A stretch of 32,000 nucleotides of DNA from an uncultured archaeon (GTDB lineage Archaea > Iainarchaeota > Iainarchaeia > Iainarchaeales > DATDZZ01). Of this stretch, positions 968 to 17,532 are shown one piece after another; the first letter of the stretch is position 1, and each line of letters opens with the position of its first letter. The notes beneath the pieces are model-generated. The model searched no databases and was not told the origin of the DNA. It saw nothing but the letters and a program-made list of their open reading frames with translations. Position numbers and translations under genes: made by a program. The stretch spans positions 60,001 to 92,000 of the forward strand of contig CAYJVY010000004.1 in NCBI GenBank assembly GCA_964373795.1, read 5' to 3'.

Positions 968-2206
968 ATGAATTTATCAAATAAAAAAATTGCTTTAATA
1001 CTTTTTGCACTTGCATTAATCAGTTTAACTTCGCTTGGCTTTTTTTTCCGCGCAACATTTACTTACTGGTTCTTCACAGGAACAAGTATTGGAAAAACCT
1101 TTCTATTCTTTTTATTTGCAGGAATTGTTTACTTAACTCCTTGGGAAAAAATTAACTCCAACAAAATATGGATTTTCAATTCATTACATGTATTCATTGC
1201 CTCAATTTTCATTTTATACTTTTTAAGTACTTTTGGATTTTTTTTAACTTTAAATGAATACTCGATTGAAAAGATTTTCACAAATTCAAATAACACTTGG
1301 ATTTTATCTTACTATGAAGAATCATTTATTTCAATAAACTGGCTTGGATTAATTCACAATCATTATTTGAAGCCAATAATTTCTCCAATAACTTTTTTCT
1401 TAAAAGACTTTGCATTTGATTCTGCATTACCATTAGCATCATTAGTGAAAAAAGAAATTCTAATAGTTGCATTTCCATTTTTAATTCTTGCAATTATTGC
1501 TTTAATTAAATCTCTTAAAACAAAAAAAGAAGACAAGTTATTTTTTTTATACATTTTGAATGGCTTTGGATTGCTCACCTCAACCCTAGATGGAGGGCTA
1601 ATTTCAGCAATAACTCAAATAAATGTAACAATTTTTTTAATCCTCTTATTAAATGATTTTTTATCAAATAATAAAAATTTTCCAGTATTAATTAAAGAAC
1701 CAATTATTAGAGCCATAACGTTTTTACTTGCATCAATTATTTCTCTTCAAATATTTAAGTGGCTATCAATAACTTTTTTAGGAGAACCTCCCATTTTCCA
1801 TGAATTTGTTTTAATCCCAACAACATTTATTTCAATATTAATTGCCTCATTGGAAGAAAGCAAATTCAAATATTCAAAATATTTTCTCTTCATATTATCC
1901 TTGATAATAATTTTAATAGCGTTTTATAATTACAGTGAACTATTTAATTCAAATCAATTAATTGATTCAATTGAAAAAACTGAAATAACCGAAGCTTACT
2001 TTAAAGTATTAAATAATTTTCAAGAAAACGAGTTAAGTGCTTCATTAGAAAAGCTTGGAAAGCATTCAAAATTAGGAGAAAAAACTTATTTCATTGAATT
2101 TAATTCAAAAAAAACAATTAAAGAGTTTTTTAAAGAAATGAAAAACAATGGATTTAAAATAATCATTTTTACTAACTCTAAGTGGAACTCGACAACTCTA
2201 GAATGA
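968..2206 (+). CDS. Polytopic membrane protein with soluble C-terminal domain, unknown function
   Basis: 412 aa ORF with many hydrophobic segments over about 330 aa, then a K/E-rich soluble tail. No motif recognised. Confidence 0.55.
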   Translation: MNLSNKKIALILFALALISLTSLGFFFRATFTYWFFTGTSIGKTFLFFLFAGIVYLTPWEKINSNKIWIFNSLHVFIASIFILYFLSTFGFFLTLNEYSIEKIFTNSNNTWILSYYEESFISINWLGLIHNHYLKPIISPITFFLKDFAFDSALPLASLVKKEILIVAFPFLILAIIALIKSLKTKKEDKLFFLYILNGFGLLTSTLDGGLISAITQINVTIFLILLLNDFLSNNKNFPVLIKEPIIRAITFLLASIISLQIFKWLSITFLGEPPIFHEFVLIPTTFISILIASLEESKFKYSKYFLFILSLIIILIAFYNYSELFNSNQLIDSIEKTEITEAYFKVLNNFQENELSASLEKLGKHSKLGEKTYFIEFNSKKTIKEFFKEMKNNGFKIIIFTNSKWNSTTLE

Positions 2207-3878
2207 TAATCCAATTTCCTTGTTGAAATAATTTTTTGCCACACTTATTTTCTTCAATTTCATTATTTAGGTTAGTTAAAAAATTATTTTCATCAAATTC
2301 CTGCAAAATATTGTTTGAATTAAAGAAAACTATTCTATTCACTTTTTGATTATAAAGAAATTCACAAGAGCCAGAAGGAAACCCATCAAAAGAAAAAAAA
2401 TCCAGAATAAATGTATTCTCTAAGCCCAATAAAATCGGATTATATACGTTAGCAAAAAAAACTTTAGAAGAAAAATTATTTGGAATAAATTCATGTAATG
2501 CTTTAACGTAAGAATTTGAGTAAATTGACTCCGAGTTATTTAACAAATCAATTGCATTAGGAGAAATTACTATAACTGAATAAAAAAGTCCTAAAACAAA
2601 AACCAGTTTAGCTATATTTGAATATACGGTTTTTTCAAAAATAATTGAAGAAAAATATTTTCCCGCTAAAACACAAATCAATGCATATAAAGGCAAAAAA
2701 TATCGATAAGTAGATCCAAAAACAAATTCATTCACTTTGCCAAAACTTAAAATAATGAAAAAAATACTTATAAAAAAGGCTAAAAAAAGCGCATTCTTTC
2801 TTAAGTTTTTTGAAAAAAAAGCTAAAATGAAAAAAACAATTACAGGAATAAAATACAAACTTGTAAAAGCAATTAACAACTTATTTAAAACAATAAAAAA
2901 TAAATTAATCAATGGAGCCGATTGCGAAGGAATGCTTGAATATTTGGAATATAACCAAAGCAATGAACTTATTTTTGAAATAAAAAAGAATGAAGAAAAA
3001 ACAACAACTAAAGAAAAATACATCAATACCTCTTTGAGTTTCTTTGATTTAAGTAAAACAAAAACCAACAGAATTAGCAAAAAAACTAATCCAATAAATT
3101 TAGTTAAAATCATTGAAACTGCAAAAAAAACACTTAAAACAAAAAATGCTCTTTGTTGTTTTCTAAAATAAAGTTGAATAAAGTAGAAACTAATCAAAAA
3201 ATTCATTGTCAAAAATAAATCTGAAAGAAAACTATGTGATAAAAAGAAAACTGCCGAAGACAATCCAAAAAAAATCGAGGCAAACCAGTTATTTTTTTTA
3301 TCCTCAAGATTAGTTAATAAATAAATAATAAACAAAGTAAAAAGAAAAATAAATGCAGGAATTGACTTCCACATGAAAATGGAAAACATTCTAGTTAAGC
3401 CAGTAATTGATTCAAATAGTAATGGATATGTGTTTGCAATTACCTTAAATCCATTTAATTGCTCTTGATAGAAAGGCATTTTTCCATTTATGGAAAACTC
3501 ATTTATTAAAGGCAAGTGATAAGAAAGAGAATCAAAATGTAAATCTAAAGAAAAAAACAAAATAAATATTGAAAGAAAAAATAAAATAAAAATAAATATA
3601 ATAAAAGGATTTAAAAAAAACCGGAAATTAATTGAAAAAACATGTTTTAAGTTATTGAAATTTAATAAAAACAAAATCAAAAAAATTAAAGAAACAAAGT
3701 AAATAATAAAAATATTTATTGGAAGAAAAAAAGAAGTAAAATAAAAAATCAATCCAATTAAAGAAATTGAAACTGGAAAACACAAAACCACTATTTCCTT
3801 TTTTTCTAATTTTAAATAATTTAATAATATGATTCCTGGAATGAAAAAGAGTAAGATAAACAGAATTAATTCAACCAT
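2178..3878 (-). CDS. Large polytopic membrane protein with C-terminal soluble domain; possibly a GT-C-type glycosyltransferase (weak)
   Basis: 566 aa with more than 10 predicted hydrophobic helices followed by a soluble domain of about 130 aa. This resembles the PMT/ArnT-like layout. No WWDxG (AglB) motif seen. Confidence 0.5.
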   Translation of the reverse strand: MVELILFILLFFIPGIILLNYLKLEKKEIVVLCFPVSISLIGLIFYFTSFFLPINIFIIYFVSLIFLILFLLNFNNLKHVFSINFRFFLNPFIIFIFILFFLSIFILFFSLDLHFDSLSYHLPLINEFSINGKMPFYQEQLNGFKVIANTYPLLFESITGLTRMFSIFMWKSIPAFIFLFTLFIIYLLTNLEDKKNNWFASIFFGLSSAVFFLSHSFLSDLFLTMNFLISFYFIQLYFRKQQRAFFVLSVFFAVSMILTKFIGLVFLLILLVFVLLKSKKLKEVLMYFSLVVVFSSFFFISKISSLLWLYSKYSSIPSQSAPLINLFFIVLNKLLIAFTSLYFIPVIVFFILAFFSKNLRKNALFLAFFISIFFIILSFGKVNEFVFGSTYRYFLPLYALICVLAGKYFSSIIFEKTVYSNIAKLVFVLGLFYSVIVISPNAIDLLNNSESIYSNSYVKALHEFIPNNFSSKVFFANVYNPILLGLENTFILDFFSFDGFPSGSCEFLYNQKVNRIVFFNSNNILQEFDENNFLTNLNNEIEENKCGKKLFQQGNWIIILELSSST

Positions 3879-3908: not shown

Positions 3909-5102
3909 TTAATTTGTTAAGTAAAACACTAACACTGGAAAAATTAAAAAAGCCATTAAATGAGTTCTTCTAATTCCATTGCTTATAGGAATTAAGCCAA
4001 TAAAAGTTGAAATAACTAATACAATTAATCCAATCAAATTAGTTAAAAAAGTTGCAAGCATTAAAACAAAAATTAATGAAAATAAATTCAATTGAAAATA
4101 ATTAATTTGTTCAATTAATTTAATTGCTTTAAAAGAAATCAAGTAAACTAAAATAGTTGAAAACCCAATTGCAAAAATAATTGTAAACAAAATAAATAAA
4201 ACATCTAAGTCATTTAATTGAAGAAGACTTTTTACCGCTAAAGCAGCTCCTGTCCTTGTCTTCCCAATAAAATACAATGAAAAAAATCCAAAAATGGCAT
4301 TAACAGTATTAATGCCTCCTAAAATAATTAAATAGTGGGAACGACTTATTTGTTTAAAAAATTGTTGCACTAAAAAACTTGCTTCACTTGGCCCTATTCC
4401 TGGAAAAATCGAAACAATTAATCCTGCAATTGAACTAATAAGAGTACATAAAAAAATAACTTTTCCATTATATGAATCATAGCTAAAAACTTGTTTTTTA
4501 ATAAAAGTTTTTTTAGTTAAACTATATAAAAGATTACTTAAACCAAAAAAACCAGTTATCACAACAAATAAACCATTTTGAACTTCAATTAAATTCCTTA
4601 AAACAATTATTCCTAAAAAAGAGGCTAAAAAAATTACGATTAACGAAATTAATTTTTTCTTATTATCTTCTTCAGAAAAAACCATTAAGAAAAGAGTTAA
4701 ACCTAAAACAACTGGAATTAAAAACTTGAAAAAAGAAAAAAATTTAATTAAAAATAATCCATAAAATGGAATTAAAAAAATTGAGAACACTCCTGCAAAC
4801 AAACCTCCCAAAGCAGTTAATTTAATTGCATACAATCCTCTTCCTTTCAAGAAATAGTGATGTCCTGGAAGAATTGATAAAAAAGTATCATCTGAAGGCG
4901 CACCTAATAAAATGCTTGGAATAAAGTCAAGAAAAGAATGAGTTACACTTAAAGCTACAATAAATAAGACTAAATGCAAATTATTTTCAGAAGCAAAAAG
5001 TAAAACCAAAAGAGAAATAGTATTAACATGAATTCCTGGAAGCAAACCTGTAAAAATTCCTGCAATGCATCCTAAAAAAATCCATGAAAGCAATTCAATC
5101 AT
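3909..5102 (-). CDS. DUF112 / TctA-like integral membrane permease
   Basis: 397 aa. The N-terminal GIFTGLLPGIHVNT and LLGAPSDDTFLSILPGHHYFLKGRG blocks resemble the TctA/DUF112 family. Its start overlaps the stop of the upstream OB-fold gene by 8 nt. Confidence 0.6.
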   Translation of the reverse strand: MIELLSWIFLGCIAGIFTGLLPGIHVNTISLLVLLFASENNLHLVLFIVALSVTHSFLDFIPSILLGAPSDDTFLSILPGHHYFLKGRGLYAIKLTALGGLFAGVFSIFLIPFYGLFLIKFFSFFKFLIPVVLGLTLFLMVFSEEDNKKKLISLIVIFLASFLGIIVLRNLIEVQNGLFVVITGFFGLSNLLYSLTKKTFIKKQVFSYDSYNGKVIFLCTLISSIAGLIVSIFPGIGPSEASFLVQQFFKQISRSHYLIILGGINTVNAIFGFFSLYFIGKTRTGAALAVKSLLQLNDLDVLFILFTIIFAIGFSTILVYLISFKAIKLIEQINYFQLNLFSLIFVLMLATFLTNLIGLIVLVISTFIGLIPISNGIRRTHLMAFLIFPVLVFYLTN

Positions 5103-5469
5103 TTAATTTCACTTCATTTGCAGTTAACTGAATCTCTCCTTTAAATAAATCAATTTTTCCAGTAACAGTTACAAATGGCTTGAGCTTAATTAGTTGAATT
5201 TGTTCTTGAGTCGGATTAAATATAACTACATTTAGTTTTCCCAAATTAAATAAATCAAAAACAATTAGTTTTTCTTTAAATGAATATGAAACAATTTTTC
5301 CTTGAATTCTAACATTCTCTCCAACATTATGTTTTCCTAAATCTTTAATCAAATAATCTTTTGGTTGAGTAAAAAAATAAAGTAATACAATTAAAATTAG
5401 TCCAATAAATGAAATGCCCAACGCGATTCTAGAAATTAATAAATCATTTAATTCCATAAAAGAATTCAA
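5095..5469 (-). CDS. Membrane-anchored OB-fold (tRNA_anti-like nucleic-acid-binding fold) protein
   Basis: 124 aa. One N-terminal TM helix (IALGISFIGLILIVLLYFF) precedes VRIQGKIVSYSFKEKLIVFDLFNLGKLNVVIF...VTVTGKIDLFKGEIQLTANEVKL, a typical OB-fold beta-barrel pattern. Confidence 0.55.
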   Translation of the reverse strand: MNSFMELNDLLISRIALGISFIGLILIVLLYFFTQPKDYLIKDLGKHNVGENVRIQGKIVSYSFKEKLIVFDLFNLGKLNVVIFNPTQEQIQLIKLKPFVTVTGKIDLFKGEIQLTANEVKLND

Positions 5470-5547: not shown

Positions 5548-6111
5548 TTATTCAATTACTTTTTCGGGTTTTCTTGAGAAAATAGATTGATTTAATGCGA
5601 CTTTCACTTTTTCCCCTAGTTTAAATTTTTTATTTGACGCAACTATGTATTTGCCTGCAGGCAAAAAAGAACCAAAATCAAAGGAAGTTTGAATTACAGT
5701 TGTATTTTTATCTGAAACTAATACTTTTCCATAAACAAAGTTTTTTCGAAATAAAAAGTAATAAAAAAATATGAATAAAATAAATACAATTATCCAAGCA
5801 ACGATAAAATTTGATTTAAAGAATAAATCTGAAGAAAAATTAATTAAAAAAGTTATTTGAACCGAAACAAGTAAACCAATAAAGAAAACAATTGCTTGAA
5901 TTTTTTCTTCTTTCAACTCATTTTTTAATGCAAAGAAAAGTAAAACTAAATAAATCAGTGAAAATAAAATTTGAGTTAAAATTAGTGATCCTTGAAAGAA
6001 ATAATCTGCAAACCCGTTTAATAAAATTGCAATTAAGATAATTTGAAGTTTTAAAACTAGGAAGGCTTTGTCATCGAAATCTGTAAAATATTTTTTGAAA
6101 AGTTCTTTCAA
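5548..6111 (-). CDS. Membrane protein (4-5 TM) with small soluble C-terminal beta domain, unknown function
   Basis: 187 aa ORF, hydrophobic core, same strand as and immediately downstream of the pilin-like genes. Confidence 0.5.
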   Translation of the reverse strand: MKELFKKYFTDFDDKAFLVLKLQIILIAILLNGFADYFFQGSLILTQILFSLIYLVLLFFALKNELKEEKIQAIVFFIGLLVSVQITFLINFSSDLFFKSNFIVAWIIVFILFIFFYYFLFRKNFVYGKVLVSDKNTTVIQTSFDFGSFLPAGKYIVASNKKFKLGEKVKVALNQSIFSRKPEKVIE

Positions 6112-6126
6112 TTAAATCACTTCAAA

Positions 6127-6504
6127 TTAAACGATTTTAATTGTTACGCTGCCATATTTTGATGAATTAGCAATTTCTGAAGATAAGTCGTTTACAATTT
6201 TGGATTTCAGTATTGAAACTTCAGGATTAGAAGAAAAATCAGTGGGAACAAAATAAAGATTTAAAACCAAATTTGATTTAGTTGTAGAAGAATCGATTTC
6301 CGCTTTTTTTAAAATATATAATTCATTTGATTCACTTAAAATTCCTGTAACCTTTGTTTTAACTTTTGCTAAAATAAAAGTGTCTTCATTAACATTAACC
6401 CATAAAGAAATTACAATCAAAGATACAATCATTATAAAGGCAGTAGCTAAAAGTAATTCAAAACTTGCTTGTCCTTTTACATTCCATTTAAACTTCTTCA
6501 ACAT
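6127..6504 (-). CDS. Class III signal-peptide (type IV pilin-like) protein
   Basis: The track start at 6519 is GTG; the ATG at 6504 gives MLKKFKWNVKG|QASFELLLATAFIMIVSLIV. This has a K-G|Q prepilin cleavage site, Glu at +5 and a hydrophobic helix. Confidence 0.7.
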   Translation of the reverse strand: MLKKFKWNVKGQASFELLLATAFIMIVSLIVISLWVNVNEDTFILAKVKTKVTGILSESNELYILKKAEIDSSTTKSNLVLNLYFVPTDFSSNPEVSILKSKIVNDLSSEIANSSKYGSVTIKIV

Positions 6505-7003
6505 GGGTTGTAGCTCCACTTTTTCTAATCTTTAATTTAACTAGTTTTCCATTTTCAGGAGAAGTGGAAATTTCTGTTGAACTACCACTTAATTTACTGC
6601 AGTCAAGTGAAGTGGCATTAACTGTTTTCATTTTTTTAGTGCATTTTGAATCAGATGAATCTCCATCTTGAGCACAAAAAGTTCCCTGAGCAGGAGAATT
6701 TAAATTTAATTCAAAACTAATTTCTCTACTAGAGGTACATTTAAGCAAAGAATTTGCTGGAAGAAACAATCGTATTTCTTGCTCGGAATTGCTTGGGGAA
6801 AGAGAAATAAAATCAATTGAGTTAACTAGTTTTTCTAAAGAACTATTAATTTGTCCAAGCCTTGAAACATCATCTGTATGCTTGAAGGCATCGCCTAAAA
6901 CTGGTTGAACAACTGTTTGAATATACACTAACATTACAACTAAAATTAAAATAAATTCAATTGAAATTTGGCCTTTTACATTCTTAAAAAAACTATATTC
7001 CAT
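6488..7003 (-). CDS. Class III signal-peptide (type IV pilin-like) protein with four Cys; candidate minor pilin or adhesin
   Basis: MEYSFFKNVKG|QISIEFILILVVMLVYI matches the QxSxExxxL class III signature. The C-terminal domain has 4 Cys (LKCTS, FCAQ, SKCTK, LDCSK). Confidence 0.7.
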   Translation of the reverse strand: MEYSFFKNVKGQISIEFILILVVMLVYIQTVVQPVLGDAFKHTDDVSRLGQINSSLEKLVNSIDFISLSPSNSEQEIRLFLPANSLLKCTSSREISFELNLNSPAQGTFCAQDGDSSDSKCTKKMKTVNATSLDCSKLSGSSTEISTSPENGKLVKLKIRKSGATTHVEEV

Positions 7004-8184
7004 AAAAGATCTCCAATTAAACTTAAAGCAATAAATGCAATCAAGATTGCTGGTGCAAAAGGCACACTTAATTTAATAGTAATTTCATTTTTTAATCTTT
7101 TGTTTTTCACTAATTTTTTTAATTCTGAAAGTTGTTCAAAAGTTATTCCTGCAGCACTTTTAGAGTCAGCTAAAACCTTTCCAGAAGGGTTGAAATGATT
7201 CACTAAAGCTTTAATATTTCCTTTCAATGCAATGGAAAAAATTTCTCCAAAATTCAATGGATTCAAAACAAATGGCTTGTTTTTTCTTAAAACAATTGAT
7301 TCAACTGAAATATCCCCTTCCTTTAAATCAGTTATTTTAATTTTCTTTTGCAAAACTTTTCTACTAAGTGAAAAAAACTTAATTAAAGTAATTAAAGCAG
7401 TGAATAACAAAAATAATGAAAACGCATTAAACAAAAATTCAGGTAAAACAGTAATTCCTTGAATTAGCACTGTTGCAATGAAGACAAGTAAAACTAAAAG
7501 TAATTGCAATGTTCGCGGAAGCTTGCTGATTAAAAAAAGTAAAATTAATGCAATTAAAAATTCAAATAAAAAAACAAATTGAGTGAAAAACAATTTGAAA
7601 TTAATTAATGAATTCACAAAATTAATTCCTTTAAATAAAATAATTAATTCAATTAATTGAATTAATCGCTTCAATGCATTTGAATAAAAGTCTTTCATTA
7701 ATTCTTTTTGCAAATCTTTTCTTTGAATAAAACCAATTAAAGTAATTCCAAATCCATAAGGAAAAACTGCAAATAAGCTAAAGAAAAACAGTGAAACAAA
7801 AAATAAAGGAAAATTTATTACTGAAAACAATTTTTCATTCAAGTTAAGCATGCTGCCCAGAAAAAAATAATTAACTGGATTTAAGGCAGTTAAAGCAGAA
7901 AAAAGTTTTACATCTCCTCCAGCCCACACTCCGATTTTCCAAAAAAACCATGCAAAAACAAAAGCAGAAATTAAAGCAATCAATGAATTAAATAAAAAAG
8001 AAAAATTGTTTTGCATGATAGAAAAAATTAAATGAAGAAAAATTCCTGCAATTGCTAAAGAATAAGTTAACTTGTTTGGAACAATTCTTTCCTTTAAATC
8101 AGTATAAGTTGCTATAAGCAAACCTGCAACCGAAACTAAAAAAATAATTCCTGAAAATAATAAAGTCATTAAAAAAAAGAGCAA
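6976..8184 (-). CDS. Prepilin/preflagellin peptidase, A24 family (PibD/EppA-like), with a large insertion
   Basis: 402 aa. First catalytic Asp lies in ATYTD(29)LKERIVPN and the second in WAGGD(91)VKLF (GxGD-type). The C-terminal LSVPFAPAILIA resembles the PilD-family terminal PFGP motif. Confidence 0.8.
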   Translation of the reverse strand: MLFFLMTLLFSGIIFLVSVAGLLIATYTDLKERIVPNKLTYSLAIAGIFLHLIFSIMQNNFSFLFNSLIALISAFVFAWFFWKIGVWAGGDVKLFSALTALNPVNYFFLGSMLNLNEKLFSVINFPLFFVSLFFFSLFAVFPYGFGITLIGFIQRKDLQKELMKDFYSNALKRLIQLIELIILFKGINFVNSLINFKLFFTQFVFLFEFLIALILLFLISKLPRTLQLLLVLLVFIATVLIQGITVLPEFLFNAFSLFLLFTALITLIKFFSLSRKVLQKKIKITDLKEGDISVESIVLRKNKPFVLNPLNFGEIFSIALKGNIKALVNHFNPSGKVLADSKSAAGITFEQLSELKKLVKNKRLKNEITIKLSVPFAPAILIAFIALSLIGDLLWNIVFLRM

Positions 8185-8262: not shown

Positions 8263-8451
8263 ATGAAAAAATTAATTATATTATTAGTTTTAGTTTCTTT
8301 TCTATTTGCCGGATGTGTTTACACTGATCAACCATACTATAACACGGCAAACAATGTTGAAGACACTCCATTAACACATACAAGTATAGATAATGAAATC
8401 AGTGATGAAGCCAGTGATGAAATAAAAAATGAGGCTTTAACAGAACCTTAA
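8263..8451 (+). CDS. Small acidic putative lipoprotein
   Basis: MKKLIILLVLVSFLFAG|C is a signal peptide plus lipobox-like L-F-A-G-C. A GAGGAGG Shine-Dalgarno sits 6-12 nt upstream. The mature part is D/E-rich. Confidence 0.55.
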   Translation: MKKLIILLVLVSFLFAGCVYTDQPYYNTANNVEDTPLTHTSIDNEISDEASDEIKNEALTEP

Positions 8452-8469
8452 TTCATGAATTAAATAAGG

Positions 8470-8476
8470 TTTTTTT
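8470..8476 (+). terminator. Oligo-T tract between convergent genes (candidate archaeal terminator)
   Basis: A T7 run lies 19 nt after the lipoprotein stop, in the 23-nt gap before the convergent pilin gene. Confidence 0.3.
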
Positions 8477-8648
8477 AGTTTCCTAAAAAAGCTGAAATTG
8501 CTTTTAACCTGAAATCAAATATTTTTCCTTGAGCTGCGGCAGCTATATCTCTTATTTGCAAGGCAAGAGTTGCAGCAATTAAAGCCAAAACAATGCTAAA
8601 TAAAACAGTTAACAAGTATTCTATTGAAACCTGGGCTTTTTCATCCAT
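8475..8648 (-). CDS. Mini type IV pilin (class III signal peptide), 57 aa
   Basis: Not in the ORF track. My translation: MDEKA|QVSIEYLLTVLFSIVLALIAATLALQIRDIAAAAQGKIFDFRLKAISAFLGN. Confidence 0.75.
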   Translation of the reverse strand: MDEKAQVSIEYLLTVLFSIVLALIAATLALQIRDIAAAAQGKIFDFRLKAISAFLGN

Positions 8649-8666
8649 ATAAAATTCTCTTTAAAA

Positions 8667-8843
8667 TTATTTAATATTTAAAGTATTGAAAAGAGTATTA
8701 GTTGCAGAGGAAACCTTGTTCTTAGCTGGCTGAGTTGAATTAAATAAAACAAATGCCACTACTGCTGCAACAAGAATTGCTCCACCTAAAAGTAATAAAT
8801 ACTCTAAAGAACCTTGAGCTTTTTCAGTTAATTGAAAATCCAT
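8667..8843 (-). CDS. Mini type IV pilin (class III signal peptide), 58 aa
   Basis: Not in the ORF track. My translation: MDFQLTEKA|QGSLEYLLLLGGAILVAAVVAFVLFNSTQPAKNKVSSATNTLFNTLNIK. Confidence 0.75.
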   Translation of the reverse strand: MDFQLTEKAQGSLEYLLLLGGAILVAAVVAFVLFNSTQPAKNKVSSATNTLFNTLNIK

Positions 8844-8847
8844 TTAA

Positions 8848-9039
8848 TCACTTTACTTTGTTTACTGCTTTTTCAATATTGCTTAAAACATCTCCGTGAA
8901 CAGTTTCTCCTTCTTTTACAACGTTTTTCGCAGAACCGCTTTGAAGTAAAATTATTGCAAGAACTGCTGCAGCTACCAAAACTGCTCCCCCAATTAAAAG
9001 CAAATATTCAACAGATGATTGAGCTTTTTCTTCCAACAT
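8848..9039 (-). CDS. Mini type IV pilin (class III signal peptide), 63 aa
   Basis: MLEEKA|QSSVEYLLLIGGAVLVAAAVLAIILL is an exact QxSxExxxL class III motif. Confidence 0.8.
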   Translation of the reverse strand: MLEEKAQSSVEYLLLIGGAVLVAAAVLAIILLQSGSAKNVVKEGETVHGDVLSNIEKAVNKVK

Positions 9040-9052
9040 TTAATCCCTTAAT

Positions 9053-9232
9053 CTACTTAATCAAGTGTTTTATTTCACCTGCTGAATTTGCAAGTGAATG
9101 TCTTCCAGTTTCAACATTATTTTTAGCTTGATTAGAGAAAGTGAAAAGGAAAGTCATTACAATTGCCGCAATTAATACTGCTCCACCAATTAAAAGCAAA
9201 TATTCTAAGGCTGTTTGAGCTTTTTCATCCAT
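9053..9232 (-). CDS. Mini type IV pilin (class III signal peptide), 59 aa; candidate major pilin
   Basis: Not in the ORF track. My translation: MDEKA|QTALEYLLLIGGAVLIAAIVMTFLFTFSNQAKNNVETGRHSLANSAGEIKHLIK. It is preceded by a GGAGGT Shine-Dalgarno and two TATA-like boxes. Confidence 0.75.
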   Translation of the reverse strand: MDEKAQTALEYLLLIGGAVLIAAIVMTFLFTFSNQAKNNVETGRHSLANSAGEIKHLIK

Positions 9233-9273
9233 TGATTAAACCTCCATATTGATGCAAATACTTTGAACTTCAA

Positions 9274-9307
9274 ATATATTTAAAATATTTCAACCTATAT
9301 TTAAAGG
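9274..9307 (-). promoter_or_regulatory. Two TATA-box-like elements upstream of the four-gene pilin run
   Basis: Minus-strand reading gives CCTTTAAATATAG and ATATTTTAAATATAT, about 45-75 nt upstream of the ATG at 9232. This is the only sizeable spacer (97 bp) inside the pilus locus. Confidence 0.45.
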
Positions 9308-9329
9308 TATCTTGTAAATAAACTAAATT

Positions 9330-9512
9330 TTATCCAATGTTTTGAATTCCGCTTGTTACATTTGAAACCTGATTTGATAACTTGTTTTCAATTGCGCCTT
9401 TAGGCAAGTTCTTTAAAAACAATCCAATTAATGAAGCAATTAAAATTGCGGCTGCAACTAATAACAATGCTTCTAAATTAACTTGAGCTTTAAATTCTTT
9501 AAACAAATTCAT
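9330..9512 (-). CDS. Mini type IV pilin (class III signal peptide), 60 aa
   Basis: MNLFKEFKA|QVNLEALLLVAAAILIASLIGLFL has a K-A|Q site and Glu at +5. It abuts the platform gene stop with a 0-nt gap. Confidence 0.75.
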   Translation of the reverse strand: MNLFKEFKAQVNLEALLLVAAAILIASLIGLFLKNLPKGAIENKLSNQVSNVTSGIQNIG

Positions 9513-10472
9513 TTACCCACCTATTAACATTAAAGTTGAGCCAATAATTGAAGCATAAAATACAAGAAAAGCTATAAACAATAAAACTGGAAAATATAAA
9601 ACACTTTTATTTATTTTTCCTTTCCTCATTAAAGCAATCATTATGCTTGTAGCAAAAATTGAAACAAATATATAAAACTGTAAAAGCAATACAATGAAAA
9701 ACCTTGCATTTTCAGCTGCGTTTTTTGCAGCAGTGGAAACAACTCCAGTTGAAATAGATGACTGAATCAAGAATTGAATTATTGTTGAAACAATTCCAAA
9801 AATAAATGGAGCAATTAATGCTCCTGCAACAAAAATGAATAATGTTTGCATTAAGGTTCTAGCTCTTCTCTCTGCATCAACTCTTTTAGCTTCTCTTACA
9901 TCTCCTGAAATGCTTTCCAGTACATCTGCTAATCCTCCTCCAGACTTAACTGAATCAATAATAATTGTAACAGTTCTATCAACTAGTCTTGAATTCACGT
10001 TTTCTGAAAGAGTTTTCATTGAGTTCTCAAAATTTTCTCCTTCCCTTAACTTATCTAAAACCTTGTTTAATTCAATTGAAAGCAATCCATAATTTGATTC
10101 AGCTATTTCTTGAAATCCTGCTTCATAAGTACTTCCTGTTTTCAAAGTATCAGATAATTGTTTTAAAGCAGGAGCCAAGTTTTCTTCTATTTCATCAATT
10201 CTTTTTTGCTCTTTGTAAACAGGAAATCCAATAAACAAGTCAAGTAATACAGCAAACACTACTAAAGGTGAAACAATTTCAGCAAAAAGCAATACATCTT
10301 TTAAAATACTTGGAACAGTAATTGAAAAAACCTTGAACGAAATTCCTACTCCAAAAGCAATTGCAAGAGAAAGAATAACTGCTATTAAAAAATATAAGAT
10401 TACTGGCAAGCCAATTCTTAAATTATTTAAACTTCTTTGATAATTAAATAAAAAACTTTTATGTACACTCAT
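9513..10472 (-). CDS. Type IV filament platform protein, half-size T2SSF domain (TadC/EpdK-like)
   Basis: 319 aa. A cytoplasmic T2SSF-like block (LAPALKQLSDTLKTGSTYEAGFQEIAE...SVKSGGGLADVLESISGDV) is flanked by TM helices. Confidence 0.8.
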   Translation of the reverse strand: MSVHKSFLFNYQRSLNNLRIGLPVILYFLIAVILSLAIAFGVGISFKVFSITVPSILKDVLLFAEIVSPLVVFAVLLDLFIGFPVYKEQKRIDEIEENLAPALKQLSDTLKTGSTYEAGFQEIAESNYGLLSIELNKVLDKLREGENFENSMKTLSENVNSRLVDRTVTIIIDSVKSGGGLADVLESISGDVREAKRVDAERRARTLMQTLFIFVAGALIAPFIFGIVSTIIQFLIQSSISTGVVSTAAKNAAENARFFIVLLLQFYIFVSIFATSIMIALMRKGKINKSVLYFPVLLFIAFLVFYASIIGSTLMLIGG

Positions 10473-10477
10473 TTAAA

Positions 10478-11647
10478 TCAAACCCTTGGCTGTGAAGCAA
10501 ACAAAAAATACGTTAAATACGCTAACACTAAAGGCATTATTATAACGTAAAAGATAATTAAATTTGTTACCCCTAAAGGCAGTCCAGTAAAAATGCTTGT
10601 TCCTTGCAATCCTAGAGGAGCATTTCTAATTGCTCCTAAAACAGCTACAAATACGGGTAAGACAATTGCAACAAAAATAAATATTACTCCAAAGAAATTC
10701 ATTTTTTCAGAAAATTCTCGCATTTTTAAAATCAAGTTATGAGACACTTCTTCTGCTACATCCTCCATTGTATCTGAAAGATTTCCTCCTGTTTTCATTG
10801 CTCTTACAACATGATTTAAGGCTTCTCTTAAAGCATTAGACTTTGTTCTGTTTCCAAGTTTTTTTAAAGCAGTTTTTTCTTCAGTTCCTTCTTCTATTTC
10901 ATTTAAGGTTCTAGCAAATTCTTCAGATAAAGCTCCGTAATCAGATACAGCAATTGTTTGAAGAGTTTTATTCAAGCCAATTCCTGCTCTTAACTCTGTT
11001 GCAATATGCCTTAAAGCAAAAGGCAATTCAACATCTAATGCATCAGCTCTTTTTTTTGCAACACTTGAAGGAACAATTAATAAAACTAAAATCATTAAAA
11101 AGAATAAAACAATGCTAACTATTAAAGACATAGTAACAGTATTTGCTAATGCAACGTTAACTAAAAAAACTCCTGCTAAAACTAATAGAAAAAAAATCAT
11201 TAAAGAAAAAATAAAAGAAGAAACAACTGTTACCCCTAAATATTGAATAACTGTGAAATGCATGAAAGCACTATCTAAATCGCTTTCTAAAAACCTTAAA
11301 GGAGAAGAAAATAATGGAAACGCTTTAATAAAATTAATCAATAAGTCAAACAATCCTTTAAAGCTTTCATAAACTTTTGCAATAAATTTTAAAAAAAAAT
11401 CTTTTGATTGAAGTAAATGCTCCATTGAAGGCCCTTTAAATCCTGGTTTAACTCCTTCAACCCAGTCCCTTAAATCTCCGTGCTCTTCTCTTGAAACTTT
11501 TTTTCCACTTAGTTCTTCTTTTCTTTTAACTCTTTCAGTAATTTTTTCCGCTAACTCTTTATCAAAAGAAGGCGCTAAAACGTTTTTAGATTTTTCTTCA
11601 ATTTTTTTCCTCAAACTAGCTATTCTGCTTTCTTTTGCTTCAGGCAT
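10478..11647 (-). CDS. Type IV filament platform protein, half-size T2SSF domain (TadB/EpdJ-like)
   Basis: 389 aa. T2SSF-like block: LPFALRHIATELRAGIGLNKTLQTIAV...AMKTGGNLSDTMEDVAEEV, with TM helices on both sides. Confidence 0.8.
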   Translation of the reverse strand: MPEAKESRIASLRKKIEEKSKNVLAPSFDKELAEKITERVKRKEELSGKKVSREEHGDLRDWVEGVKPGFKGPSMEHLLQSKDFFLKFIAKVYESFKGLFDLLINFIKAFPLFSSPLRFLESDLDSAFMHFTVIQYLGVTVVSSFIFSLMIFFLLVLAGVFLVNVALANTVTMSLIVSIVLFFLMILVLLIVPSSVAKKRADALDVELPFALRHIATELRAGIGLNKTLQTIAVSDYGALSEEFARTLNEIEEGTEEKTALKKLGNRTKSNALREALNHVVRAMKTGGNLSDTMEDVAEEVSHNLILKMREFSEKMNFFGVIFIFVAIVLPVFVAVLGAIRNAPLGLQGTSIFTGLPLGVTNLIIFYVIIMPLVLAYLTYFLFASQPRV

Positions 11648-11688: not shown

Positions 11689-13374
11689 TTAAATTTGTTT
11701 CTTCTCAAACAAAAACCGTTGAGTCTCTCTTACTACTTCATCAATTGACCTAATTCCTTTATCAACTAATGCTTGCAAAAATTTTTCTCTATCACTTAAA
11801 TCTTCTTTAATATCTTTTTTACTCAAACCACTTAATAATTCTATTTCTTTCAAGTACTTGCTTTGAACATCTGTTGCTTCCAAAGAATCTTTTACTGCAT
11901 TCCTTGAAAAAATTGTTTGCACTTGAATCTTTCCCTCTAAAACCCCTGAAACCTCTGCAATTTCAGTTACTCTTCTAATGCTTCCTTTTTTTCTGTCATG
12001 CAATCTATGCTGAATCAAAATCAAGTCAAGAGATGAAAGCATTAATTCAGGAACATTCATTGGAGGATTTGTAACTCTAACAATTGTTTCCTGAGGAGAA
12101 TTTGAATGAATTGTTCCAAGGCTTCCGTTATGCCCTGTATTCATTGCAGTAAACAAAGTAAAAGCCTCTGAATGCCTTACTTCTCCTACAACAATTCTAT
12201 CAGGCCTCATTCTCAAAGAATTCTTAGTTAAAATATCCATTGTAAGCTCTCCTTTTCCTTCCAATCCAGGAGGCTTTGCTTCTAATCTAATCCAATGACT
12301 TAAAGGAATATTTAATTCAGCTGTATCCTCAATTGAAACAATTCTTTCATTTGAAGGAATAAGCGAAGCCAACACATTTAAAGTAGTTGTTTTTCCAGAA
12401 CCAGTTCCTCCAGCAATTAAAGAATTTGAAGGCTTTACTCCAAAGCCATCAACTGAAAGCCATAAAAAAGCTGCAACTTCAACTGAAATAGTTCCATAAT
12501 TAATTAAATCAATTAAACTAAAAGGATCGTCTCTAAACTTTCTAATAGTTAAAGTCGAACCACTAACAGAAGCAGGAGGAATGGTTGCATTAACTCTAGA
12601 ACCATCAGGCAATCTAGCGTCAAGCAATGGATTTGAAATATCAACTCTTCTTCCAACTCCTCTTGCAATCTTGTTAATTAAATCTTGCACTTCAGTATCA
12701 GAGTAAAACTCAATATTGGTTAACATCATTTCATATTCTCTGTGAAAAACGTATACAGGAGTTTTAGGTCCAATAATCATTATTTCCTCTAATTTATTGT
12801 CTCGAATTAATTCATCAATTAAACCATATCCAACCATTTCTCTTACAACTGCATCAGCATAAAAAGGAAACTTTGATTCAGGAATATTCAATTCCTCTGC
12901 TTCTCTTAAAATGTCTAAAATTTTTTGAAAATAAACATTTCTCTTTTCTTCAGGATCCCTAATTTTATAAGGCTCTATTGCAATCAACCTAGTTGCCACT
13001 TCTTTAATAGTATTAATAATTGTTTTCTCAGTCAAATTCGGGCGAGGAACTGGAACATTATAGACAAGTAAATCCTGTCCTTCAACTTGAAAAATTTCAA
13101 CATTTCCATAAGCAGCAATCTTTGTTTTCTTTGAAGAAACCAAATCACTTTGAATTGAAGCAGTTTTAATTTTTGGAACTGAAACCTCTTCAATTTCTTT
13201 CACTTCTTCAACTGAATCAGTTTTTAAAGAAATTTTTGCAGATTCTTCAACAATTGGTTTTGGTTCTAAAACCTTTTTTTCTTCAGGTTTTTCTTTTACT
13301 GCAAAAAAGCCTTGAGAATACTTTAATTTTTTCTCCTTCTTTAATTTTTTAAACATTTCACTAAAAGAACTCAT
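11689..13374 (-). CDS. Type II/IV secretion-family assembly ATPase (FlaI/TadA/VirB11 superfamily)
   Basis: 561 aa. Walker A AGGTGSGKTTTLN, Asp box IVSIEDTAELN, Walker B RPDRIVVGEVR and His box TGHNGSLGTIHSNS. Has a K/E-rich N-terminal extension of about 90 aa. Confidence 0.9.
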   Translation of the reverse strand: MSSFSEMFKKLKKEKKLKYSQGFFAVKEKPEEKKVLEPKPIVEESAKISLKTDSVEEVKEIEEVSVPKIKTASIQSDLVSSKKTKIAAYGNVEIFQVEGQDLLVYNVPVPRPNLTEKTIINTIKEVATRLIAIEPYKIRDPEEKRNVYFQKILDILREAEELNIPESKFPFYADAVVREMVGYGLIDELIRDNKLEEIMIIGPKTPVYVFHREYEMMLTNIEFYSDTEVQDLINKIARGVGRRVDISNPLLDARLPDGSRVNATIPPASVSGSTLTIRKFRDDPFSLIDLINYGTISVEVAAFLWLSVDGFGVKPSNSLIAGGTGSGKTTTLNVLASLIPSNERIVSIEDTAELNIPLSHWIRLEAKPPGLEGKGELTMDILTKNSLRMRPDRIVVGEVRHSEAFTLFTAMNTGHNGSLGTIHSNSPQETIVRVTNPPMNVPELMLSSLDLILIQHRLHDRKKGSIRRVTEIAEVSGVLEGKIQVQTIFSRNAVKDSLEATDVQSKYLKEIELLSGLSKKDIKEDLSDREKFLQALVDKGIRSIDEVVRETQRFLFEKKQI

Positions 13375-16939: not shown

Positions 16940-17227
16940 GTGAAAGACTGGATAAAAACAATCCTGAATGCATTCAACAGGAATACAATATTTATTCATT
17001 TTAGCTTCCACATAGAGTTAAAAAATCTTACACGAAATCTTGACCTTGACAATGTATTCAAAACCGTTAGAAAAGGAAAAGTACTTGAAGCAAAATCAAT
17101 ATATCCTGACAGAATTGCCTTTTATCACTTTTTCAAAGAAGGATTTACATATGTTGCAATTGTGAAGATTTATCCAAACTCTTTCAAAGTAATCACTGCA
17201 TGGAAAAATAAAGGAAGAAAGATATGA
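16940..17227 (+). CDS. DUF4258-like putative toxin
   Basis: 95 aa. FSFHIELKNLTRNLDLDNVFKTVRKGKV plus the C-terminal FKVITAW resemble the DUF4258 pattern (H-A-x-x-R...I, ending V-I-T-x-Y/W). It overlaps the next gene by 4 nt (ATGA). Confidence 0.45.
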   Translation: MKDWIKTILNAFNRNTIFIHFSFHIELKNLTRNLDLDNVFKTVRKGKVLEAKSIYPDRIAFYHFFKEGFTYVAIVKIYPNSFKVITAWKNKGRKI

Positions 17228-17532
17228 AAAAAATAAGATGCCCTTGCGGAGGCGTGTTTGAAGAAAAAAAAGTAAAGACTGAAGGATTTTTAGTTGATGG
17301 ACTAAAATGCAACATGTGTGGGGAGATTACTTTTTCCTTACAACAATTCAAAAAAGTTTTCAGGTTTAGACAGTTAGCAAAAGAAATTGACTCAACAAAA
17401 AAAATTGTTCAAATTGGAAACTCAATTGGCTTAATTCTTCCAAAAGGAATAGAAAAACTTGGACTCAAAGTTGGCGATAAAGTAAAACTAAAACTGGAAA
17501 ACAAGAAAAAGATGGAACTAATTTTAGAGTAA
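17224..17532 (+). CDS. Putative antitoxin: N-terminal Cys4 zinc ribbon fused to C-terminal AbrB/SpoVT domain
   Basis: CPCGG...x...CNMCGE is a MqsA/YgiT-like zinc ribbon. VQIGNSIGLILPKGIEKLGLKVGDKVKLKL is an AbrB/SpoVT swapped-hairpin motif. Confidence 0.6.
   Translation: MKKIRCPCGGVFEEKKVKTEGFLVDGLKCNMCGEITFSLQQFKKVFRFRQLAKEIDSTKKIVQIGNSIGLILPKGIEKLGLKVGDKVKLKLENKKKMELILE

Follow-up and report, generated by a model that had tools for sequence, protein, structure and literature searches.

Positions 60,001 to 92,000 of contig CAYJVY010000004.1 (assembly GCA_964373795.1), from an uncultured archaeon of the Iainarchaeales, carry five very small genes in tandem on the minus strand, and the question that they raise is what kind of protein such short genes encode and in which system the products work. 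We refer to the whole 32,000-nucleotide (nt) stretch as the window and to the genes as g1 to g5, numbered in the order of transcription from g1 (9330-9512) to g5 (8475-8648). An initial annotation had read them as type IV prepilins with a K-A/Q processing site (a slash marks the cleavage point throughout, and mature residues are counted from +1) and Glu at mature position 5. This reading holds, both in the assignment of the genes to the Class_IIIsignal family and in the pilus operon that surrounds them. Judged by their sequences, the five products are archaeal class III signal-peptide prepilins of the EppA-dependent type, and we consider it likely that they serve an Epd-like (EppA-dependent, Tad-like) type IV pilus and lie within its assembly operon in this archaeon of low guanine plus cytosine (GC) content. 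The family is already annotated publicly as class III signal peptide proteins, and the locus represents no new kind of machine. Type IV filaments are thought to be the main means by which small, host-dependent archaea attach to surfaces or partner cells, and we know of no pilus of this archaeal group that has been characterised.

The five small genes

The genes are listed here with their lengths in amino acids (aa), the start of the predicted mature protein and the class to which each belongs; the classes are described below.

9330-9512, minus strand: mini-prepilin g1, 60 aa, 'first-position' class; KA/QVNLEA..., tail ...GLFLKNLP...
9053-9232, minus strand: mini-prepilin g2, 59 aa, central class; KA/QTALEYLLLIGGAVLIAAIV...
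8848-9039, minus strand: mini-prepilin g3, 63 aa, central-class paralog; KA/QSSVEYLLLIGGAVLVAA...
8667-8843, minus strand: mini-prepilin g4, 58 aa, central/penultimate class; KA/QGSLEYLLLLGGAIL..., tail ...PAKNK...N.L.N.L, with an N-S-T sequon
8475-8648, minus strand: mini-prepilin g5, 57 aa, 'last-position' class; KA/QVSIEYLLTVLFSIVLAL..., tail R..AQ..I.D[FY]R...IS

The coordinates and lengths (57, 58, 63, 59 and 60 aa, from g5 back to g1) that had been reported for these open reading frames (ORFs) are exact. When the five N-termini are aligned, as had been proposed, every one of them has the K-A/Q site, Glu5 and about 20 hydrophobic residues. The invariant positions are K, A, Q, Glu(+5) and two Leu, while the +6 residue is Tyr in four of the genes and Ala in g1. 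The predicted mature proteins are 51-57 aa long. Three of the genes had been described as invisible to the ORF track, which is true only in the sense that the listing had a threshold of 60 aa; all five are annotated as genes in public assemblies, through independent gene calling on three further assemblies that contain the same sequence. The contig is also present in runs ERR3478686, ERR4904390 and ERR4904391.

The initial annotation also held that the C-terminal tails diverge completely. This goes too far, since an AKN motif is common to three paralogs, one Ala is invariant and the types of tail are kept across genomes. At the DNA level, the paralogs are 65-78% identical over 79 nt of the N-terminal coding region, with the highest value, 78%, between g2 and g3. 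We found no long identical DNA tracts between the five paralogs, which would be the sign of cassette recombination, and a recombining cassette is unlikely because identity does not exceed 78% over these 79 nt. Gene conversion or cassette recombination among the paralogs was rejected on the same figure.

An ORF of 99 aa lies antisense to g2 and g3 (8832-9131, plus strand). No evidence supports it as a gene, and in AT-rich sequence opposite real genes it is most likely a by-product.

Membership of the class III signal peptide family

The relevant Pfam entry is PF04021, Class_IIIsignal, which was formerly DUF361 and whose proteins have been labelled UPF0333; its gathering score is 23.7 bits. Two of the window genes score above this value (g4 32.2 bits, g2 30.8 bits), and the others score 20.6 (g3), 14.8 (g1) and 14.3 (g5). 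A non-circular test of the two weakest was provided by the alignments of their orthologues from nine loci, which hhalign matched to the main family profile with probabilities of 98.8% for the first-position class and 96.7% for the last-position class; because of these matches, we regard g1 and g5 as real family members. PF04021 also matches all 112 aligned members of the family.

A single-sequence homolog search with g2 gave only three matches, and it was the profile searches that found the family. With a profile built from the five genes and two close matches, 556 proteins were retrieved at an expect value (E) of 0.01 or lower, nearly all of them 51-68 aa long and carrying PF04021. Those that have names are called 'class III signal peptide-containing protein' and come from metagenome-assembled genomes of Diapherotrites, Iainarchaeum or Micrarchaeota. 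A HMMER scan of 1.84 billion cluster representatives gave 1,753 matches at E <= 0.001, including 496 at E <= 1e-10; many of the 1,753 are longer proteins with only the N-terminal module in common. The family comprises at least 1,753 cluster representatives.

The processing site is highly conserved. Among 254 retrieved members the consensus is [KR][GA]/Q-G-A-L-E-Y-L-L-L-I-G-G, with K or R at position -2 in 248, G or A at position -1 in all 254 (Gly in 130, Ala in 124), Q1 and E5 in all 254 and Tyr6 in 253. The published signature of EppA substrates is KG/Q or RA/Q, with a required Gln at +1 and a Glu at +5 (PMC4371748, PMC3875500). We compared the class III motif of g1-g5 with the published EppA processing sites by eye, and all five have K-A/Q-x-x-x-E followed by a hydrophobic stretch.

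Searches for other filament types gave little. The archaellin domain (PF01917, Arch_flagellin) reaches 18.7 bits at the N-terminus of one gene, below its threshold of 29.5, and no archaellum accessory genes were found among the window ORFs scanned. When PDB sequences were searched with the family profile, nothing significant was found; the top weak matches were archaellin and a 'flagellin-like protein', with no Tad pilin among them.

The same N-terminus also occurs on larger proteins. In the nearest relative from the genome collections (locus L004), the second-position pilin (8943-9203) has 86 aa and a TTG start, and its tail is rich in Cys and in Thr/Asn, with several N-x-S/T sequons. Many proteins of 80-250 aa with the mini-pilin N-terminus were likewise retrieved by the profile search. 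Taken together, these proteins indicate that the mini-pilin module also anchors extra C-terminal domains.

The surrounding pilus operon

The genes for a complete assembly machinery lie on either side of g1-g5. All are on the minus strand within about 7 kilobases (kb), and their order of transcription is ATPase, platform protein 1, platform protein 2, g1-g5, peptidase and two larger genes with KG/Q sites.

11689-13374, minus strand: pilus assembly ATPase of the T2SSE/VirB11 superfamily, FlaI/TadA-like, 561 aa; Pfam T2SSE, E 1.8e-46
10478-11647, minus strand: platform protein 1, TadB/TadC-like; single T2SSF domain, 67.8 bits; syntenic in all related loci
9513-10472, minus strand: platform protein 2, TadB/TadC-like; single T2SSF domain, 62.7 bits
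6976-8184, minus strand: large EppA-like prepilin peptidase with A24 and archaeal C-terminal domains, 402 aa; Peptidase_A24 52.1 bits, Arc_PepC 49.4 bits
6488-7003, minus strand: larger class III signal protein, KG/QISIEF..., 171 aa; C-terminal domain, conserved cysteines, Class_IIIsignal 19.9 bits
6127-6519, minus strand: second larger class III signal protein, KG/QASFE..., about 120-130 aa; no Pfam match

The pilin reading of the five genes is borne out by this operon, with its EppA-like A24 peptidase, two single-domain T2SSF genes and T2SSE ATPase. The ATPase matches the NCBIfam models for FlaI (300 bits) and for the TadA family (233 bits), in each case under the cut-off of the model. Compared with relatives of solved structure, it is closest to Caulobacter CpaF (253.9 bits over residues 171-489), followed by the archaeal afGspE (238.6) and FlaI (214.7). 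Two separate single-T2SSF platform genes adjoin it, as in the systems called Epd-like, 'clade 1' or 'system 1' (PMC6668835; bioRxiv 10.64898/2026.04.22.720090), and the precursors of 57-63 aa without a globular domain agree with the short major pilins (precursors of about 60-75 aa) of Epd-like systems. The stop codon of platform protein 2 directly abuts the ATG of g1, which suggests that g1 is translationally coupled to the platform gene.

For the peptidase, the best NCBIfam model is EppA, which it matches over nearly its full length with 56 bits against a cut-off of 450. Its Asp29 and G-G-D91 motifs are intact, and both are matched in an alignment to the FlaK structure 3S0X. With about 8-9 hydrophobic segments it is comparable to the 9-TM form of EppA (PMC4858521). 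The two genes that follow may extend the set of subunits. The protein of 6488-7003 is a candidate larger minor pilin or adhesin; it recurs in six other loci, and its invariant residues are M, G, Q, S, I, E, F and two Cys. That of 6127-6519, also kept in six other loci with K-G-Q...E invariant, is a candidate larger minor pilin, which may in fact start at an internal Met.

Outside the operon the window is ordinary archaeal chromosome, with threonyl-tRNA synthetase (ThrRS) carrying the archaea-specific editing domain, Nre, RFC, TrmB, Lrp/AsnC and topoisomerase genes. Its GC content is 28.9%. Rfam and tRNA scans of the window gave no matches, and a scan for sigma-70 promoters and intrinsic terminators gave counts at or below the shuffle expectation, with models that are uninformative for an archaeon.

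Related loci and positional classes

The same gene order is found in eight other loci: ThrRS, ATPase, T2SSF, T2SSF, three to six mini-pilins and a peptidase with A24 and Arc_PepC domains, usually followed by a class III protein of about 170 aa and then one of about 120 aa. Three of these loci come from NCBI assemblies, at least two of which carry the label Diapherotrites, one from a GTDB genome record and the others from metagenome contigs of JGI and ENA. One was found by scanning genome contigs with the platform protein and the remainder by exact look-ups of homologs. The closest labelled relatives are DPANN genomes.

Across the nine loci we translated 41 mini-pilins and found that position in the array predicts sequence class. 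Genes of the first-position class abut or overlap the stop codon of the platform gene, end in a tail of the form ...G-[LAM]-[FY]-L-K-x-x-P and often miss Tyr6. In the second-position class the consensus is QGALEYLLLIGGAVLIAAIV, and a gene of this class may be followed by a close copy or two, such as g3. A penultimate class, ending in ...NKL..FLNQI, is weakly distinct. The last-position class combines QVSIEYLL[ST]VLF... with the conserved tail R..Q..A..IL.YR..TI..L; its nine orthologues align, and it is the most conserved class.

These classes can be recognised from the window genes by BLASTP against the 36 mini-pilins of the other eight loci, taking the top eight matches of each gene. First-position genes make up seven of the eight for g1, second-position genes six of the eight for g2 and last-position genes all eight for g5. 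The top eight for g4 are of mixed positions, including penultimate genes, and the best matches of g3 are second- and middle-position genes.

The orthologues are under purifying selection. Pooled over orthologues from closely related genome pairs, the ratio of non-synonymous to synonymous change (pN/pS) is 0.28. It is lowest in the last-position class, where one pair has 0 non-synonymous against 11 synonymous changes and another has 8 against 27, and highest in the second-position class, which is what an exposed major subunit would lead one to expect. The conservation of the first and last genes across genomes indicates distinct, non-redundant roles, and the earlier idea that the array is a cassette of alternative subunits is weakened by these positional orthologues as well as by the lack of long identical DNA tracts between the window paralogs. 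The product of g1 is probably a minor pilin and that of g5 probably a dedicated one.

In four of the related genomes the orthologous pilus ATPases carry one or two inteins (Intein_splicing, LAGLIDADG) and reach up to 1,560 aa (L005 729-5411; L009 2353-5463; L010 3358-5604; L012 902-5584). The ATPase of the window has none.

The second gene as the probable major pilin

Upstream of g2 lies a spacer with the following features:

9233-9329, minus strand: AT-rich spacer of 97 nt; two TTTAAATATA boxes at 9305-9296 and 9285-9276; GGAGGT at 9245-9240, 7 nt before the ATG

Both the GGAGGT and the twin boxes had been noted before, and we confirmed them at these positions. The spacer is a candidate internal archaeal promoter combined with a strong ribosome-binding site for g2. 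Its second TTTAAATATA box stands 53 nt before the g2 ATG; at the usual archaeal spacing from TATA box to start, transcription would begin about 20 nt upstream of the ATG, and the leader would include the Shine-Dalgarno site.

The suggestion that this gene may be the major pilin gains comparative support. GGAGG is found upstream of the second gene in nine of nine loci, of the first gene in four of nine and of none of the later genes. The spacer before the second gene is enlarged (46-108 nt) and AT-rich in six of the nine loci and measures 16-21 nt in the other three. The Shine-Dalgarno site, the spacer, the faster evolution of the tail and the tendency to duplicate all support g2 as the major subunit, and it probably is the major pilin.

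Predicted structure and resemblance to Flp pilins

With the 112-sequence alignment, AlphaFold2 predicts g2 to be a single helix over residues 3-58, with a mean predicted local distance difference test (pLDDT) score of 92.8; for g5 it predicts a helix over residues 3-56 with a pLDDT of 85. A Foldseek search of the PDB with the g2 model gave no matches, a lone helix being unsearchable in this way.

The products had been called strikingly similar to bacterial Flp/Tad pilins. To compare the families we confirmed the sequence of Caulobacter PilA against PDB 8U1K and the protein database (100% match) and built a 51-sequence Flp alignment. hhalign aligned the archaeal family to it with a probability of 70.7% and a score of 27.9 over 36 columns, with the cleavage sites and the A-[IL]-E-Y motif in register. 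As controls, 100 column shuffles of the Flp alignment scored 10.1 +/- 2.6 (maximum 18.7) and the reversed alignment 14.9. The last-position class matches Flp with 59% probability, and BLASTP aligns g2 with Caulobacter PilA in register at 27% identity over 51 residues. Of the Flp motif (G/xxxxEY followed by a G-L-I type sequence), E5-Y6 is present in four of the five genes; position -1 is Ala in the window genes, and position 7 is Leu, not Gly. The Pfam entry Flp_Fap (PF04964) has no match to the five window genes at E <= 1; it weakly matches 10 of the 112 family members, with a best E of 0.016 and none at threshold.

The similarity thus stands as far as the motif, the in-register profile alignment and the single helix go, but it stays under the Flp_Fap threshold. 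The proteins plausibly work like Flp pilins and are plausibly distant kin of them; by sequence they are members of the archaeal family and not of Flp_Fap. The further remark that the locus fits the proposed archaeal origin of Tad pili is consistent with the in-register alignment and with the ATPase, which among solved relatives is closest to the Tad motor CpaF. No Tad-specific parts (secretin RcpA/CpaC, TadZ, TadD, TadE/F/G or a TadV/CpaA peptidase) were found when the window ORFs were compared with Pfam.

How the system may work, and alternative explanations

If the locus encodes an Epd-like pilus, each precursor would insert into the membrane through its hydrophobic segment, and the A24 aspartyl peptidase (6976-8184) would cut after K-A, leaving Gln1, Glu5 and, in four of the five, Tyr6. 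The ATPase (11689-13374), acting on the two split platform proteins, would then lift the all-helical subunits of about 50 residues out of the membrane, and these may be packed into a thin filament that, like the Caulobacter Tad pilus, has a hydrophobic core and lacks globular domains. In this scheme g2 would be the major subunit, made from its own AT-rich, promoter-like spacer with the only strong Shine-Dalgarno site. The product of g3, a presumed recent paralog of g2, probably co-polymerises with it or substitutes for it, and g1 would be translated in coupling with the platform gene. The products of g4 and above all g5 would be conserved, low-abundance pilins which, together with the larger class III proteins (6488-7003 and 6127-6519), probably serve to prime assembly or make up the tip or base. 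The function of the pilus is likely to be attachment to surfaces or to a host cell.

Several observations weigh against this account. Three of the five window genes (g3, g1 and g5) fall under the Pfam gathering score when scored singly. BLASTP distinguishes the penultimate class only poorly from the central one. The prediction of a helix for a monomer is nearly uninformative on how subunits pack in a filament. An internal promoter is not universal, because three of the nine loci have no enlarged spacer before gene 2, and the peptidase is EppA-like in architecture only, given its 56 bits against a cut-off of 450.

It could be asked whether these are genes at all. At 28.9% GC, short ORFs are common in the window, and three of the five are shorter than 60 aa, as would be expected of chance open frames in AT-rich DNA. 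Chance does not, however, produce a motif that is repeated five times, matches a curated family and recurs in at least 1,753 cluster representatives, nor synteny in eight other loci, a pN/pS of 0.28 or a pair of genes with 11 synonymous and 0 non-synonymous changes; independent gene callers, moreover, annotate all five. The evidence of conservation refutes this explanation, to which we give practically no credence. A more serious alternative is that the five are interchangeable major pilins, alternative subunits for different conditions or for surface variation in the manner of Haloferax PilA1-6. The conserved N-terminal helix with variable tails would suit such a role, as would the copy number of three to six across genomes, the recent duplications in the central class (genes 2 and 4 of L012 are near-identical) and the highest pN/pS being that of the second-position class, and small clade-1 paralogs have been suggested to serve different conditions (PMC4858521). 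Yet the first and last genes are orthologous in all loci, with signatures of their own and under strong purifying selection; only the second gene of the window has a strong ribosome-binding site; and there are no long identical tracts, the best being 78% over 79 nt. We consider this explanation unlikely for the array as a whole, and it may still apply to g2 versus g3.

The machinery could instead build a short pseudopilus or piston for uptake or export, for example of DNA or nutrients from a host, in place of a long adhesive pilus. There are many presumed low-abundance pilin classes relative to the one probable major pilin, the conserved neighbours include a membrane-anchored protein with an oligonucleotide/oligosaccharide-binding (OB) fold and a TctA-type transporter, and natural transformation of Methanococcus maripaludis reportedly requires, among others, type IV pilus genes (PMC10133366). 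Against this, the filaments of the closest characterised systems, Epd of M. maripaludis and bacterial Tad, are long and adhesive (PMC3875500, PMC6668835, PMC10710030), the strength of the g2 translation signal suggests production of a subunit in bulk, and no DNA-translocation genes were identified in the window. On balance a pseudopilus seems to us somewhat less probable again than a set of interchangeable pilins, and a filament of the Epd-like type remains our preferred explanation. The locus, whose compact parts list takes up about 7 kb, lends itself to structural studies of all-helix pili and to their heterologous expression.

Sequons and glycosylation

The sequons N-S-T in g4 (8667) and N-V-T in g1 (9330), from which N-glycosylation had been proposed, are indeed present, and g2, the probable major pilin, has none. 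The step from sequons to glycosylation is not supported, as two sequons in 297 residues is the chance frequency: the shuffle mean is 2.16 (P(>=2) = 0.66), and the other window proteins predict 1.6 per 297. With 2 sequons observed and 2.16 expected, their number was rejected as evidence for N-glycosylation.

A gene for a multi-pass glycosyltransferase of the GT-C type (PMT/PMT_2) lies near the operon in the window (2178-3878, minus strand), in L010 (12532-14244) and in L012 (10088-11683). In L012 it comes directly after the peptidase gene; the window copy scores 19.4 bits, under threshold. Glycosyltransferase genes of the GT2 type adjoin in L005 and L012. This recurrent PMT-type GT-C gene could be a more specific lead than the sequons for glycosylation of the pilins or of the surface.

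Other neighbouring features

Between g5 and the peptidase gene, and convergent with the pilin array, an ORF of 62 aa (8263-8451, plus strand) begins MKKLIILLVLVSFLFAGC, with a lipobox-like signal. Gene calls on the Logan contig L001 include it too, and it is missing from this place in the eight related loci, where the peptidase gene directly follows the last pilin gene. An imperfect palindrome (about 8452-8474) with an A/T run lies between the stop codons of this ORF and g5.

Downstream of the larger pilin-like genes stand three further genes:

5095-5469 (minus strand), 5548-6111 (minus strand) and 3909-5102 (minus strand): an OB-fold protein with a membrane anchor (tRNA_anti-codon domain, 27.1 bits), a membrane protein of the DUF2101 family and a transporter of the TctA family; also found in L004, L006, L008, L010 and L011

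Elsewhere in the window there is an overlapping pair that resembles a toxin-antitoxin system:

16940-17532, plus strand: DUF4258 (21.4 bits) and MazE-like SpoVT/AbrB (23.2 bits), both just under the Pfam thresholds

Comparison with known systems

The closest characterised counterpart is the Epd pilus of M. maripaludis, whose parts include the small minor pilin EpdD/MMP1283, the peptidase EppA, the platform proteins EpdJ/K and the ATPase EpdL. Its major pilin, EpdE/MMP1685, has a precursor of 74 aa and 62 mature residues, its small minor pilins have 67-76 aa, and EpdA-C have 130-156 aa (PMC3875500). As there, the leaders of the window pilins end in [KR][GA] with Gln at +1 and Glu at +5, and the major pilin would be tiny, without a globular domain. 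Both systems also combine small pilins with pilin-like proteins of about 130-170 aa, a dedicated large A24 peptidase and two platform genes (PMC3875500, PMC4371748, PMC4858521). With its tiny major pilin accompanied by minor pilins of 130-156 aa (PMC3875500), the Epd system is closely paralleled by the present locus in its size pattern.

The differences lie in organisation and in detail. In the window all parts belong to one operon, in which the tandem mini-pilins separate the platform genes from the peptidase gene, whereas the Epd genes of M. maripaludis occupy at least four loci, with a stand-alone gene for the major pilin (PMC3875500). The window peptidase falls far under the EppA equivalog cut-off, and the mature pilins have 51-57 aa against the 62 of EpdE. 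Since the M. maripaludis pilins have neither Tyr at +6 nor the Flp motif (PMC3875500), the E-Y pair is a real difference from the characterised archaeal system. Clade-1 systems in general have major pilins of about 70 aa, usually encoded by stand-alone genes, and an EppA (arCOG02300) with nine transmembrane segments, and their small pilin paralogs may serve different conditions (Makarova et al., PMC4858521).

The Haloferax volcanii pilins PilA1-6 are likewise paralogs with a near-identical hydrophobic N-terminus and divergent C-terminal parts (PMC4371748). They differ in being larger, in being processed by PibD, in having neither Gln at +1 nor Glu at +5 and in lying apart from the assembly genes. 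They are also functionally redundant major pilins, whereas the positional classes described here are conserved and distinct.

Bacterial tad operons are also known to begin with flp paralogs in tandem. Like Caulobacter PilA (8U1K), the mature products here have 40-60 residues and are predicted to form one continuous helix (PMC10710030). The archaeal family shares with Flp the x-A-[IL]-E-Y core with Glu5 and Tyr6, and about half of its members have Gly at -1 and hence the literal G/xxxxEY; the locus further resembles Tad in its split TadB/TadC-type platform and in an ATPase core closest to CpaF. The pilins are unlike Flp in having Gln at +1, Ala at -1 in the window and Leu rather than Gly at position 7. 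Unlike Tad, the locus has a large archaeal EppA-like peptidase and not TadV/CpaA, no secretin, TadZ, TadD or TadG was found in the window, and the host is an archaeon with a single membrane.

Much of this has been anticipated, and the interpretation given in the initial annotation largely restates published work (PMC6668835, PMC3875500, PMC4858521, bioRxiv 10.64898/2026.04.22.720090). Bacterial Tad has been derived from an Epd-like archaeal system, with short pilins and a split platform cited in support (Denise et al., PMC6668835). The Tad pilin has been described as a continuous helix packed like those of archaeal pili, with Tyr6 under the N-terminus of the next subunit (Sonani et al., PMC10710030), and, according to a preprint of 2026, some DPANN archaea have 'system 1' (bioRxiv 10.64898/2026.04.22.720090). 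The limited literature that we searched yielded no publication on this tandem array in DPANN archaea or on its E-Y motif, which does not prove that none exists.

The site of near-literal Flp type ([GA]/Q-G-A-L-E-Y), the CpaF-like ATPase core and the arrangement of the genes in a single tad-like operon bring to mind a bolder idea, namely that, among living archaea, the closest relative of the bacterial Tad pilus is to be found in this lineage. We think this doubtful. If it were true, and these systems proved to be the sister group of bacterial Tad, they would stand on the donor side of the inter-domain transfer that has been proposed, or reflect a back-transfer, and their conserved classes of single-helix pilins would offer a model for the priming and capping of a filament built only of helices.

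What the present analysis adds to earlier work is the conserved positional classes, the comparative support for g2 as the major pilin, the in-register, sub-threshold similarity to Flp and the CpaF-like ATPase core. Of these, the Flp-like E-Y site and the ATPase core contribute sequence detail to the published archaeal (Epd-like) origin of Tad.

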